Shown: positions 41,216 to 45,625 of the stretch, one piece after another | How positions within the stretch are numbered: the stretch's first letter is position 1 | Layout: each line of letters starts with the position of its first letter | Assembly (NCBI GenBank): GCA_041690175.1 | Contig: JAWLHV010000006.1 | Location: forward strand, 63,914 to 127,913 | Direction of reading: 5' to 3' | Source: Dehalococcoidia bacterium | Lineage (GTDB): Bacteria; Chloroflexota; Dehalococcoidia; UBA2979 | DNA: 64,000 nucleotides | Made by a program: the position numbers and the translations under genes | The notes under the pieces: generated by a model | What the model was told of the DNA's origin: nothing | Seen by the model: the letters and a program-made list of their open reading frames with translations, nothing else | Databases searched by the model: none

Positions 41216-41974
41216 TTACTGCGCCCACCCCGGCCAGAAGCCGAAGTCGATGCGGTTCCAGTCCGGATGACCCATCGCGGGTGAGTACGGCCCCAGGTCC
41301 TGGCCGTTCACCGCCAGCAGCAGATTGCGCCCGTTGTCCGTCCACACCTGGATGCGCTCGCCGCCCTCCCAGGACTGGCGCTGCCCGGCGCGCAGCGTGC
41401 CATCGAACTGCACCACGCCGTCCACCGTCACGCGCACCTGGGCGTCTTCCGGGGCGGCGAGGCCCACCGTGACGCGGTTGGGCGCAGGGGCTACCGCCGG
41501 GGGCGCGAACGGCTCCGAGGTGGGCGCCACCGTGGTGGCGGTCTCCGCGGGGGGCTCGTCTCCGGCGAATATCGCGACGCCGCCCAGCACCACCAGCGCC
41601 ACCCCCGCCGCCACGGGGAGCGCCACGCGCGCGGGGACGCGGCGCCAGCCGCGGCCGTCTACGTCGCGGCGGGCGGCCTCTTCCCACTCGTCGGGTGGCC
41701 AGGCTTCCCGTGCAGCGAGTGCCGCGCGAGACGGGACCGGCGGGGGCAGCGGCGGCAAGTCCTCCTCGAACGTCCCGGCGGGGACGGCCCGGGGCCGCGC
41801 GGGCGCGCGCTCCCGGTCGGTGGGGCGGTCGGGGGCCATGGCCGGCGTGCGAAGGTCCGCCCACAGCGTCCGGAAGGCCGTGAGCAGGAAGACGTACAGG
41901 AGCACCACCGCGCCGATGCGGAGCGCTAGCAGGACCAGCGGCCAGCCTTCGTCGAGCAGGGCGTCACCTCCCAC
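41216..41974 (-). CDS. Membrane protein with a C-terminal RodZ-like (DUF4115) domain
   Basis: Two TM helices; C-terminus VRVTVDG...GTLRAGQRQSWEG...IQVWTDNG..L.VNG matches the DUF4115 pattern; start uncertain (GTG 41974, or CTG 41959 behind GGAGGT). Confidence 0.65.
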   Translation of the reverse strand: MGGDALLDEGWPLVLLALRIGAVVLLYVFLLTAFRTLWADLRTPAMAPDRPTDRERAPARPRAVPAGTFEEDLPPLPPPVPSRAALAAREAWPPDEWEEAARRDVDGRGWRRVPARVALPVAAGVALVVLGGVAIFAGDEPPAETATTVAPTSEPFAPPAVAPAPNRVTVGLAAPEDAQVRVTVDGVVQFDGTLRAGQRQSWEGGERIQVWTDNGRNLLLAVNGQDLGPYSPAMGHPDWNRIDFGFWPGWAQ

Positions 41975-42105
41975 GGCCCGGATGGGCCTCCCTCCACGAT
42001 ACGGCCGAGAGGGCCACTGGGCGTCCCATGTGAGGACGGTCACGCGGACTCGGGATACGGTGGAAGGACCCTCCCTCCCCACCGCTGGGCCATCCTCGGA
42101 GGTCT

Positions 42106-44802
42106 ATGCGCTCCGCCGAACTCCACTCACCGCGCCGTTCCTTCCTCGCGAACCTCGTCCTGCTGGTGGCGCCCTCCACGCTGCTGCTGGCGGCGCCCGC
42201 GCTGGTGCTGTGGTCCACCGGCCGCGACGCGGATCCGCAGATGCAGGCGATGGCCGTGATGCTGGCGGCGCTGCCGCTCCTCACGCCGCCCATGCTGCGG
42301 CTGGTGGGCCGCCCGTGGGACGCGCACCTGCTGGCGCCGGCGTGGGTGCTGTGCGCGCTGGGCCTGGCCGTGGTGGCGCGCGTGCAGCCCTCGATCCTGG
42401 CCACACAGATGCTGTGGATCAGCGTCGGCTGGTCGGCGTTCATCGCGCTGGTGGGCTTCCCGCTGCTGCTGCCGTGGCTGCAGCGCTTTCGCTACTGGCT
42501 GCTCCTGGCCGGCCTGCTGCTGATCCTGGTGACGCTCATGGCCGGCGAGGACGTGACCGGGCAGGGCGCGCGCCTGTGGCTGACCATTGGCCCGGTGCGC
42601 ATGCAGCCGGCGGAGTTGCTGCGGGTCCTGCTCATCGCCTTCATCGCCGGGCACCTCGCTGAGCGGGTGGCGTCCTCCGGACCTCGAGGGGTGGAGTTGC
42701 GCTCGATGGCGGCGGACTGGGCGCCGTTGCTGGCGATGTTCGGCGTCACGGTGCTGGCCGTTCTGGCGCAGCGGGACTTCGGCCCGTCCCTGATCTTTGG
42801 CGCGAGTTTCGTGGCCATGCTCTACCTGGCCACGGGACGGAAGACCTACGTGCTGGCGGCAGTGGGCGTGGGGTTGGTGGCCTTCGCGCTGATCTACCTG
42901 GGCTCGGACCGCGTGCAGGGGCGCGTGGACGCCTGGATGGATCCGTGGGCGGACCCGCGAGGGCAGGGCTACCAGTCCCTGCAGGCCCTGGGTGGGTTCG
43001 TCTTTGGCGGCGTGTTCGGGTCGGGGCCGGGCTACGGCTATCCCGGCCTCATCCCCGCAGCCCACACGGACTATCCGCTGGCGGTGATCGGCGAGGAGTG
43101 GGGGCTGCTGGGCTCGCTGGCGGTGGTGGCGCTGTACGGGCTGATCGTGGCGCACGCGCTGGGCCGTGCGAGCGCATCCTGGAGCGGCTTCGGCCAGTTG
43201 TTGAGCGCCGGCCTGGCGGTGAGCCTGGCGGCGCAGGTGCTGCTGGTCTCCGGGGGCGTGCTGCGCGTGGTGCCGCTGACGGGCCTGACGAGTCCCTTCC
43301 TGAGTTACGGCGGTAGTTCCATGCTGATGGCGTGGGTGATCCTGGCGCTGCTGGTGGCCGCTCGGGGCGAGCATGTTCCGCGCGCCGTCCCCAACCTCGC
43401 CCCGAACCTTGCACGCCTGCCGCGCATCGAGTTGCGCACGCGCGAGGTAGGGCTGGCCGTGCTCGCCGGCTTCGCGGGTCTCAGCCTGGCGCTGGGCTAC
43501 TGGCAGGCGGCCCGCGCGGACCTGCTGACGGACCCCGCCGTCACCGGCGAGCGCCTGCGCTCCGAGGAGGCGCGCGTCCACCGCGGTCGCATCCTGGACC
43601 GCGAAGGGCGCGTGCTGGCGGAGACGGAGATCGGCCCTGACGGGGAACCTCGACGCGCCTACCCGGCGCCCGGCGCGGTGCACGTGCTGGGCTTCAACTC
43701 CGTGCTGGTGGGCGCTTCAGGGGTGGAGGCCCACGCCTCAGACCGGTTGATGGGGCACCACGACTCCTCCCCGGCGGACACCTGGCGTGACCTGCTGAAC
43801 CGCCCCCGCGCCGGCTCGGACGTCACGCTCACCCTGGACCTGGACTTGCAGCAGGTGGCGGCGGCGGCGCTGGAGGGCGTGGCCGGTGCGGTGGTGGCGC
43901 TGGACCCGCGCACGGGCGACGTCCTCGCCATGGCCAGCAGCCCCACCTTCAACGCGAACTTCAGCCCGGAGGAGTGGGAGGAACTGCGCGCGGCTCCGGA
44001 TAGCCCGCTCCTCAACCGCGCGACGCAAGGCCTCTACACGCCGGGCTCCACGTTCAAGACGGTCACGCTGGCCGCCGCGCTGGAGTACGGCCTGGTGACG
44101 CCGGACATGCCCGCCGCCTGCCCGCCGGAGGTGTTCATCGATGGTGTGCGCATCGTCAGCAGGAACGAGCCGCCGGGTCGCACCACGCAGACCGTGGCGG
44201 ACGCCTACGCGTACTCCTGCAACACCTTCTTCGCGGAACTGGGCGTGGCGGTCGGGGCGGAGCGACTGCGCGCCATGTCCGAGGCGCTGGGACTGACCGA
44301 TGCCCCGCCGTTCCCGCTGCCGACGTCACAGGGGCGACTGGCGACCTCGCCGGGCTTCCTGGAGACGGGGGCCGGGCTCGCGGCCTCCGGATTCGGGCAG
44401 GGGGAACTGCAGTTCTCGCCGCTGCACCTGGCCCTGGTTACCGCCGCCGCCGCGAATGGCGGCGTGATCATGGAGCCGCGCCTCTTCCTGGAGGACGAAC
44501 CTCGCGAGTGGCGACGCGCCCTGTCGCCGGCCACCGCGCGCGACCTGGCAGAGATCATGGGCTACAGCGTGGAGGCGGGATGGGCCTCCACGGCGGCGGT
44601 GCCGGGCGTCCGCGTGGGCGGGAAGACCGGTTCCGCGGAGGTCGTGACGGAGGAACAGCCGCACGCGTTGTTCATCGCCTTCGCGCCCGTGGACGCGCCG
44701 GAGATCGCGGTAGTGGTCATCAAGGAGTACGCCGGCTCCGGTTCGCAGCAGGCAGGCCCGGTGGCGCGCTCGATCATCGAGGCGTGGCTGGCCGGCCAGT
44801 AG
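42106..44802 (+). CDS. Fused SEDS glycosyltransferase (RodA/FtsW) and class B PBP transpeptidase
   Basis: QPAELLR, QRDFG, HTDY (catalytic Asp), TGLTSPFLSYGGSS; then PGSTFK (SxxK), YSCN (SxN), GKTG; one uninterrupted frame. Confidence 0.9.
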   Translation: MRSAELHSPRRSFLANLVLLVAPSTLLLAAPALVLWSTGRDADPQMQAMAVMLAALPLLTPPMLRLVGRPWDAHLLAPAWVLCALGLAVVARVQPSILATQMLWISVGWSAFIALVGFPLLLPWLQRFRYWLLLAGLLLILVTLMAGEDVTGQGARLWLTIGPVRMQPAELLRVLLIAFIAGHLAERVASSGPRGVELRSMAADWAPLLAMFGVTVLAVLAQRDFGPSLIFGASFVAMLYLATGRKTYVLAAVGVGLVAFALIYLGSDRVQGRVDAWMDPWADPRGQGYQSLQALGGFVFGGVFGSGPGYGYPGLIPAAHTDYPLAVIGEEWGLLGSLAVVALYGLIVAHALGRASASWSGFGQLLSAGLAVSLAAQVLLVSGGVLRVVPLTGLTSPFLSYGGSSMLMAWVILALLVAARGEHVPRAVPNLAPNLARLPRIELRTREVGLAVLAGFAGLSLALGYWQAARADLLTDPAVTGERLRSEEARVHRGRILDREGRVLAETEIGPDGEPRRAYPAPGAVHVLGFNSVLVGASGVEAHASDRLMGHHDSSPADTWRDLLNRPRAGSDVTLTLDLDLQQVAAAALEGVAGAVVALDPRTGDVLAMASSPTFNANFSPEEWEELRAAPDSPLLNRATQGLYTPGSTFKTVTLAAALEYGLVTPDMPAACPPEVFIDGVRIVSRNEPPGRTTQTVADAYAYSCNTFFAELGVAVGAERLRAMSEALGLTDAPPFPLPTSQGRLATSPGFLETGAGLAASGFGQGELQFSPLHLALVTAAAANGGVIMEPRLFLEDEPREWRRALSPATARDLAEIMGYSVEAGWASTAAVPGVRVGGKTGSAEVVTEEQPHALFIAFAPVDAPEIAVVVIKEYAGSGSQQAGPVARSIIEAWLAGQ

Positions 44803-44815
44803 GCTGCGCGCGCTG

Positions 44816-45625
44816 CTAGTAGAGGGCGGCGGCGACGTCCTCCAGCGCGCGACGCTCCTCCTGGTCCATCGGCTCGTACTCGGAGGCCACGGCCACGTTC
44901 TGGCGGATGCGGTCCGGGTAACGTGCGCCCGGGATCGCCACCGAGACCCCGGGGTGGGAGAGGACGTAGCGCAGGAGGTTCGCCGGCGTCAGGATGCCCG
45001 CGCTGCCGTCCTCCATCCGGGTGCGCATGACGCTGGTGCGGCCGGATCCGCCCAGTGGACGCATCACGATCACGCCCACGTCATGCTCCGCGGCCAGGTC
45101 GATGAGTGCCGACGACTCCGGGTAGAAGGCGGAGTACTCCACCATCACCGTGTCGAACGCCCCGCTGAGGACGGCCCGCTCCCCGATCTCCAGGTGGTGC
45201 GTGGACACGCCAATGTGCCCGATGAGCCCTCGGTACTGCGCGACCTGGAGGCCCTCCAGCGCGCCGTCCGCGCCCATCGCTTCGTCCCAGGCCTGCGGCG
45301 TGGAGATGTCGTGCAACTGGTAGAGGTCGATGCGCTCGACGCCGAGGAAACTGAGCGAGCGGTCCACGTCGCGCTGGCTGCCGTCCGCAGTGTGGTTGAA
45401 GGTCTTGCTGGCCACGTGGAACGTCTTGCCGCCGCGCTCGCGCACCACCTGGCCGATGAGGAACTCGCTGCCCTCGTACTCGCGAGCGGTGTCCACGAAG
45501 TCGATGCCGAGGTCCAGCGCGGTACGGAGCGTGTCGGCGCCCTCGGACGACTGGGGGGTGTCCATGGCCCCCAGTCCGAGTTCCGCGACCATCAGGTCGG
45601 TGCGTCCGAGTCGCCGCTTGCGCAC
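44816..45625 (-). CDS. Aldo/keto reductase
   Basis: RRLGRTDL, FVDTAREY, VASK, IDLYQLH, HIGVSTH, IVMRPLGG. Confidence 0.85.
   Translation of the reverse strand: MRKRRLGRTDLMVAELGLGAMDTPQSSEGADTLRTALDLGIDFVDTAREYEGSEFLIGQVVRERGGKTFHVASKTFNHTADGSQRDVDRSLSFLGVERIDLYQLHDISTPQAWDEAMGADGALEGLQVAQYRGLIGHIGVSTHHLEIGERAVLSGAFDTVMVEYSAFYPESSALIDLAAEHDVGVIVMRPLGGSGRTSVMRTRMEDGSAGILTPANLLRYVLSHPGVSVAIPGARYPDRIRQNVAVASEYEPMDQEERRALEDVAAALY

Follow-up and report, generated by a model that had tools for sequence, protein, structure and literature searches.

This report concerns a gene on a 64,000-nucleotide stretch of contig JAWLHV010000006.1 (positions 63,914 to 127,913; GenBank assembly GCA_041690175.1) from a Dehalococcoidia bacterium; this whole stretch, whose G+C content is about 72%, is referred to below as the window. 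The gene encodes a protein of 898 amino acids in which a SEDS-type glycosyltransferase is followed, in one reading frame, by a linker, a transmembrane (TM) anchor, a PbpA-type pedestal and a penicillin-binding transpeptidase (Table 1). SEDS polymerases and penicillin-binding proteins of class B (bPBPs) normally work as two-protein pairs. We consider it probable that its product is a true peptidoglycan synthase of the RodA-PbpA type made as a single chain, accessory to the FtsW-FtsI and MreBC-PBP2-RodA systems. The open reading frame (ORF) is confirmed as a genuine, in-frame and conserved gene in which both sets of catalytic motifs are intact. The single frame with polymerase, linker, TM helix of a penicillin-binding protein (PBP) and transpeptidase that had been read by the initial annotation is borne out by the ORF, the Pfam matches and the motif positions, and the HTDY, STFK, SCN, KTG and PNLAPNL motifs lie where it had placed them.

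In its N-terminal half, the protein matches the FTSW_RODA_SPOVE family (PF01098) over residues 96-419 with an E-value of 1.1e-64 and a score of 219.2 bits (cut-off 26.4). Among the sequences of the Protein Data Bank (PDB), this half aligns with FtsW (8BH1; E-value 1e-31) and RodA (6BAR; E-value 1e-25), and also with 6PL5_A, in which the catalytic Asp is matched. The putative catalytic residue of the polymerase, Asp322, pairs with D255 of the Thermus thermophilus RodA protein, a position that is occupied by D in 6BAR and by A in 6BAS (the D255A mutant), and it is kept in 77 of 77 fused homologues. Ten hydrophobic segments lie between residues 72 and 421 and two more in an N-terminal extension (T. 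thermophilus RodA aligns to the fusion from residue 81 only); the helices of the AlphaFold2 (AF2) model concur with this predicted topology. The predicted SEDS core of ten TM helices has both ends in the cytoplasm, and the six Arg residues present in the linker stretch 419-447 fit the positive-inside rule. Since the extra helices are even in number, both ends of the complete SEDS portion would remain cytoplasmic, which makes its junction with the cytoplasmic N-terminus of a bPBP topologically natural.

The C-terminal half opens with a TM anchor that is predicted to lead the chain from the cytoplasm to the outside; it continues with a match to PBP_dimer_2 (PF21922; E-value 6.9e-08, 33.1 bits, cut-off 27) and with the transpeptidase domain. 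The E-values of the Pfam domains of the fusion are far beyond chance, and the PF00905 match together with the positions of STFK, SCN and KTG upholds the view that the transpeptidase is intact. Neither the long PBP_dimer pedestal (PF03717) nor a GT51 glycosyltransferase domain (PF00912) was matched in the Pfam scan of the ORF. The AF2 model of the full-length protein has a pLDDT of 93.0 and a pTM of 0.83, with low confidence confined to residues 1-8 and to linker blocks within 421-440. For residues ~480-895, the best matches in both sequence and fold are structures from Coriobacteriia (E-values down to 2.8e-54, ~34% identity). The PBP half comes nearest to PBPA of Mycobacterium tuberculosis and is equally near to 4MNR from Eggerthella lenta, which carries the title [quoted passage not shown], and to 4JBF from Atopobium parvulum, with TM-scores on the target of 0.82-0.87 overall, and several of the superposed Coriobacteriia structures are beta-lactam complexes. 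The PBPA structures matched are 3UN7 and 3LO7 (E-value 1.7e-49, TM-score on the target ~0.83).

Table 1. Features of the fused SEDS-bPBP gene and of its divergent neighbour (positions in the window).
Feature	Position	Strand	Details	Basis
Fused gene	42106-44802	+	898 aa; SEDS, linker, TM anchor, PbpA-type pedestal, transpeptidase	ORF calling, Pfam
Shine-Dalgarno-like GGAGG	42098-42102	+	3 nt 5' of the ATG of the fused gene	read from sequence
N-terminal extension	42136-42309	+	two extra hydrophobic helices (residues ~11-68) before the SEDS core	hydropathy, AF2 helices
SEDS (FtsW/RodA/SpoVE) glycosyltransferase core	42319-43368	+	residues 72-421; ten predicted TM helices	PF01098, hydropathy, AF2
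Asp322, putative catalytic Asp of the polymerase	43069-43071	+	in HTDY (43063-43074)	alignment
Cytoplasmic linker	43369-43443	+	residues 422-446, EHVPRAVPNLAPNLARLPRIELRTR; Arg/Pro-rich, 25 aa	AF2 low confidence
Two tandem 12-nt units	43390-43413	+	encode PNLA-PNLA; CCC AAC CTC GCC / CCG AAC CTT GCA	
Membrane anchor of the PBP half (one TM helix)	43444-43503	+	residues 447-466, EVGLAVLAGFAGLSLALGYW	hydropathy; AF2 helix 441-469
PbpA-type N-terminal (short pedestal/dimerisation) domain	43582-43821	+	residues 493-572	PF21922
Penicillin-binding transpeptidase domain	43885-44781	+	residues 594-892	PF00905, E-value 1.3e-50, 172.7 bits
STFK	44047-44058	+	S648-T-F-K651	motif
SCN	44215-44223	+	S704-C-N706	motif
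KTG	44623-44631	+	K840-T-G842	motif
Membrane protein with RodZ_C domain	41216-41974	-	without helix-turn-helix (HTH) domain; divergent from the fusion	PF13464, E-value 3.5e-09

A long frame of this kind might be an artefact of assembly or sequencing in which adjacent rodA and pbpA genes were merged through a lost stop codon or a frameshift; the source is a metagenome-assembled genome (MAG) of 15 contigs at 72% G+C, and such DNA often contains long ORFs that are spurious. Four public runs were compared with positions 42000-44900 through their Logan contigs, and the junction is spanned by a contig of 776 nt from run X1 (42990-43753), by one of 955 nt from run X2 (43304-44258) and by one of 195 nt from run X3 (43316-43498), a soil metagenome of a different study. 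These contigs, which stem from three runs and two studies, carry a few substitutions and zero frameshifts or stops, and they cross the junction in frame, as the annotated single chain demands. Their only indel, an in-frame insertion of 12 nt (GCCCCGAGCCTT) after position 43398 in X1 and X3, is a multiple of three. Furthermore, a search for full-length homologues returned the same SEDS plus transpeptidase architecture in 114 of the 120 best clusters at 90% identity, covering 86-100% of the query, and these come from many studies; at 50% identity, the majority of the 150 top representatives have lengths of 800-1100 amino acids and match across the junction. Within the genus, the fused gene is present and free of stops in seven of 12 genomes, as is the case in the same-genus genomes G004, G006, G008, G009, G010 and G011. 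The artefact is effectively refuted by these data, and we attach next to no probability to it.

The insertion seen in X1 and X3 adds a third unit (APSL) to the linker, and the PNLAPNL micro-duplication pointed out in the initial annotation is hence a tandem repeat of 12 nt, always in frame, whose copy number varies between strains. This in-frame copy-number polymorphism is a small new point. At the linker position of the PNLA repeat, the 77%-identical homologue P0003 carries IPRIPRIPR. Across the 77 homologues, the segment that corresponds to residues 419-447 ranges from 19 to 77 amino acids (median 26); these linkers abound in A, P, R and S, show no conservation and are prone to repeats. A disordered, variable and Pro/Arg-rich segment of this type might invite proteolysis, so that the protein would be made as one chain and then cut in the linker to yield an ordinary two-protein SEDS-bPBP pair, the fusion ensuring co-translation and a 1:1 stoichiometry. 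In one study, a minor fraction of engineered RodA-PBP2 fusions was indeed cut during purification (PMC6207328). However, neither the sequence nor the length of the linker is conserved, no conserved protease motif was found in the linkers of the 77 homologues, and uncleaved engineered fusions are fully functional (PMC6207328, PMC10449877). We therefore regard processing into two chains as unlikely.

The fused homologues also bear on the task of the PBP half, whose main function might be to activate the polymerase allosterically from within the same chain, or to scaffold it, rather than to cross-link. This seems to be so in one clade, comprising 23 of the 77 fused homologues, whose members have lost SxxK, SxN and KTG and keep the SEDS Asp, and the TM helix of a PBP alone is known to stimulate RodA (PMC10449877). 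All three motifs are, however, intact in the host protein and, to judge from the sequences, in its whole Dehalococcoidia clade; the 39 closest sequences all keep the transpeptidase motifs, KTG being replaced by KSG in one case. The predicted fold, moreover, matches PbpA structures that bind beta-lactams, and a purely scaffolding PBP half is accordingly, in our estimate, decidedly improbable for the protein studied here.

The clade with the lost motifs is about 36-38% identical to the host protein and typically has AxxQ/E, AxP and HWG/HLG at the respective positions. Its members fall within P0059-P0114 of alignment A1 (e.g. P0060, P0068, P0075, P0101 and P0107), and those having a source name are Anaerolineae. 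Judged by its motifs, this clade is a predicted intact polymerase fused to a pseudo-transpeptidase. In a quick maximum-likelihood tree of the transpeptidase half (IQ-TREE; 35 fused proteins, 11 split ones and two outgroups), the Dehalococcoidia fused proteins are monophyletic (100*) and the proteins with the dead transpeptidase form a separate clade. The fused/split character changes three times on the best tree, and only one change is forced by well-supported branches. Across a sample of 401 Chloroflexota genomes, about 15 carry a fused match, and these are spread over several families.

The window belongs to a Dehalococcoidia-class MAG of 3.03 Mb in 15 contigs that is 92.8% complete and contains three SEDS genes, five transpeptidase domains and two GT51 class A PBPs (aPBPs), the latter at loci on contigs other than that of the fusion. 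Contig 12 carries mraW-ftsI-mur ligase-mraY-murD-ftsW-murG-murC, with ftsA-ftsZ farther along, and contig 2 carries mreB-mreC, followed by mrdA-rodA. It could be argued that the fusion is the fused form of the host's principal synthase for elongation (RodA-PBP2) or division (FtsW-FtsI), given that pbp2_mrdA, ftsW and rodA_shape are the NCBIfam names that fit it best and that its neighbour has a RodZ_C domain. Yet its scores fall far below the equivalog cut-offs for FtsW (TIGR02614; 214.3 versus 337.5 bits), RodA (TIGR02210; 168.9 versus 336.7 bits) and PBP2/MrdA (TIGR03423; 267.5 versus 455 bits), and the genome has a PBP2 (MrdA; 494.3 bits) and an FtsW (357.7 bits) that do pass these cut-offs, in the mreB-mreC-mrdA-rodA context and in the dcw context of contig 12, respectively. 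A role of the fusion as main synthase is thus very improbable. Because the canonical FtsW and MrdA proteins pass and the halves of the fusion fail, the fusion is a third, distinct pair, and its place as the third SEDS-bPBP set of a peptidoglycan-complete Dehalococcoidia-class genome is a small new point.

This inventory also removes the reason why the initial annotation had thought the fusion notable in a member of the Dehalococcoidia, many of which lack peptidoglycan. The peptidoglycan machinery of the host is complete, comprising FtsW/FtsI, MreBC-PBP2-RodA and a pair of class A PBPs, so that the affiliation of the host poses no paradox. The class is mixed with regard to wall synthesis, but the host lineage clearly makes peptidoglycan. 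The genomes of the relatives are labelled as Dehalococcoidia or Chloroflexi MAGs. Among the 401 genomes from the Chloroflexota, numerous small ones from the host's class (1.3-2.2 Mb, nearly complete) had zero to four SEDS/PBP candidates at first look, which fits wall-less Dehalococcoidales-like lineages beside peptidoglycan-complete families.

To which SEDS-bPBP pair the fusion corresponds can be read from the gene order of its relatives. The Coriobacteriia homologue P0106, which is 34% identical to the fusion across 97% of its length, lies in the arrangement FhaA_N/FHA - FHA - PP2C - [fusion] - Pkinase/PASTA; this is the actinobacterial order fhaA-fhaB-pstP-rodA-pbpA-pknB with rodA and pbpA merged, and the family consequently represents the RodA-PbpA pair of that cluster. 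A Limnochordales homologue is found in the order PP2C-[fusion]-Pkinase/PASTA-rsgA-rpe. In the Chloroflexota relative P0040 (58% identity; L040, 5423-8694), a gene for an FHA protein of 193 amino acids, which has no counterpart in the window, shares 4 nt with the start of the fusion; at this locus the RodZ_C gene is divergent from the fusion and forms an operon with that of a Ser/Thr kinase. FHA, PP2C or kinase neighbours occur in the relatives L034, L039, L040 and L026. Among split relatives of the same class, PbpA stays beside FhaA-like genes that converge on the SEDS gene. In the split-gene locus L026 (G030:C1:402000-414000), the minus strand carries, behind a PbpA-type gene, one gene with FhaA_N and FHA and then a further FHA gene, which converge on the SEDS gene and form an actinobacterial-like module in a different arrangement. 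Synteny thereby settles the identity of the fusion family as RodA-PbpA. The label "RodA-type" given in the initial annotation accordingly stands for the actinobacterial RodA/PbpA lineage and fails for the RodA of the Rod system, whose equivalog cut-off the fusion does not reach.

The two-protein counterparts in M. tuberculosis, Rv0017c (RodA) and Rv0016c (PbpA) of the cluster fhaA-fhaB-pstP-rodA-pbpA-pknA-pknB, follow each other in the same order as the domains of the fusion, and PbpA shares with it the short N-terminal domain (PF21922) and the transpeptidase fold. Relatives of the fusion retain the FHA, PP2C and kinase neighbours. In contrast to the fusion, the M. tuberculosis RodA and PbpA proteins are two polypeptides, and they lie in a kinase/FHA context that the host window does not have.

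The RodZ_C gene is divergent from the fusion in each of the eight fused loci whose flank is long enough and encodes the sole RodZ_C match in the genome. It likely starts at the GTG at 41974, behind GGAGGGAGG, rather than at the longest ORF start at 42082, and the divergent intergenic gap between the two genes measures 131 nt. This membrane protein is a candidate partner of the fusion, and the conserved partner gene is a further small new point. Of the downstream genes, those for an aldo-keto reductase, a thioesterase and a nucleotidase are partly shared, in the closest relatives only; besides these genes and the RodZ_C gene, the neighbours in the window include PadR-modA.

Taken together, a mechanism can be envisioned in which the SEDS domain would polymerise lipid II into glycan strands by way of Asp322 in a large outer loop. 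The short, flexible, Arg/Pro-rich cytoplasmic linker would pass into the PBP TM anchor and so take the chain outside, where new strands would receive their cross-links from the PbpA-type pedestal and the serine transpeptidase (Ser648); the anchor and the short pedestal may supply the activating contacts known from RodA-PBP2. By joining the C-terminus of the SEDS unit to the N-terminus of the bPBP, both presumably cytoplasmic, the fusion would set a 1:1 ratio and a permanent pairing of the polymerase with its activator and cross-linker. It would represent a third, accessory SEDS-bPBP machine that probably works with the divergently encoded RodZ_C protein. We infer that the protein has both enzymatic activities, stays uncleaved, plays this role in the cell and has the RodZ_C protein as its partner.

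Several points weigh against this interpretation. The support for the junction consists of assembler contigs, from the three runs and two studies named above, rather than of raw reads; RNA runs for the locus were sought and none was identified, X1 and X2, of unstated kind, being the only runs returned. In addition, the literature search returned no biochemical or proteomic evidence on any full-length natural fusion, and no FHA, PP2C or Ser/Thr kinase genes lie beside the fusion in the window. As a tentative extension of this reading, one that we consider rather doubtful in itself, the fusion and the HTH-less RodZ_C protein could form a self-contained third wall-building module in the Dehalococcoidia family of the host that is free of the FHA/phosphatase/kinase control of its relatives and inserts peptidoglycan at a site or time apart from the MreB-Rod system and the divisome.

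The initial annotation regarded SEDS-bPBP fusions as a device of protein engineering. Engineered ones are indeed in use, but natural ones are already known as well (PMC12516126, PMC10449877). A Microlife 2025 survey (PMC12516126) reports 117 InterPro proteins termed "bifunctional bPBPs", among them a 931-amino-acid protein of Senegalimassilia faecalis with exactly the architecture of the fusion (SEDS-PBPA_dimer-TPase) and a 947-amino-acid chimeric synthase of Rhodococcus jostii RHA1. Nygaard et al. (Nat Commun 2023, PMC10449877) mention natural single-ORF fusions, and literature phrase searches yielded no further accounts. The homologues are routinely annotated by NCBI as FtsW/RodA/SpoVE family proteins. 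As natural fusions are common and have already been described, the host fusion is a new example and not a discovery. The chimeras of the survey share the N-to-C order of the fusion (SEDS, TM, PbpA-type domain, transpeptidase) and a size of ~900-950 amino acids, and the natural fusions of both reports coexist, like that of the host, with canonical FtsW/FtsI. Unlike the chimeras catalogued there, the host fusion comes from a high-GC Dehalococcoidia-class MAG and has a RodZ_C neighbour instead of mreB or kinase/phosphatase genes.

C-terminal halves of FtsW/RodA-PbpA fusions from Coriobacteriia have been crystallised (E. lenta 4MNR; A. parvulum 4JBF, 4N1X, 4R0Q and others with beta-lactams); the solved parts are soluble halves only, and these fusions lie in fhaA-fhaB-pstP-[fusion]-pknB, whereas the host locus is outside such a cluster. 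Engineered Escherichia coli RodA-(GGGS)3-PBP2 and RodA-TSGSGSGS-PBP2 proteins complement deletions and polymerise lipid II (PMC6207328; PMC10449877, PDB 8TJ3), and they are joined in the same way as the fusion, with the SEDS C-terminus connected to the bPBP N-terminus through a short cytoplasmic linker. PBP2, also in the T. thermophilus RodA-PBP2 complex (6PL5) to which the SEDS half aligns, has the long PBP_dimer pedestal, whereas the fusion has the short PbpA-type domain and a natural linker of 25 amino acids. Class A PBPs likewise combine a lipid II polymerase and a DD-transpeptidase in one chain and would be functional analogues of the fusion; their polymerase is of the GT51 type, that of the fusion a polytopic SEDS protein. 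The proposal of a natural single-chain synthase made in the initial annotation thus holds insofar as both active sites are intact, but not in the sense of a substitute for class A PBPs, of which the genome has two.

These findings leave the current understanding of peptidoglycan synthesis unaltered. Natural single-chain SEDS-bPBP enzymes do offer a fixed 1:1 ratio without engineering; none that has been characterised as a full-length protein was found in the literature searched, and the fusion, for which modelling predicts a well-folding chain with confidence (pLDDT 93), would be a sensible subject for assays of lipid II polymerisation, for beta-lactam profiling or for cryo-electron microscopy. 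The conserved RodZ_C pairing provides a testable lead to a partner. For the biology of the Chloroflexota, the locus documents a high-GC Dehalococcoidia-class lineage with complete and redundant wall machinery, consisting of three SEDS-bPBP sets and two aPBPs.

Some minor observations concern the gene itself and its split relatives. Internal starts from which a separate PbpA protein could be made were considered at an in-frame TTG at Leu443 and at a GTG within the anchor and were rejected, neither having a convincing ribosome-binding site. In G034, HMMER read-through of the region 5' of a split PbpA gene gave query residues 314-895 with two stops, which resembled a decayed SEDS relic; this reading was dropped because tblastn aligns from residue 446 only. 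An ORF of 518 amino acids runs antisense to the SEDS half (42127-43683, minus strand) and is taken to be the usual shadow of a coding frame in high-GC DNA.

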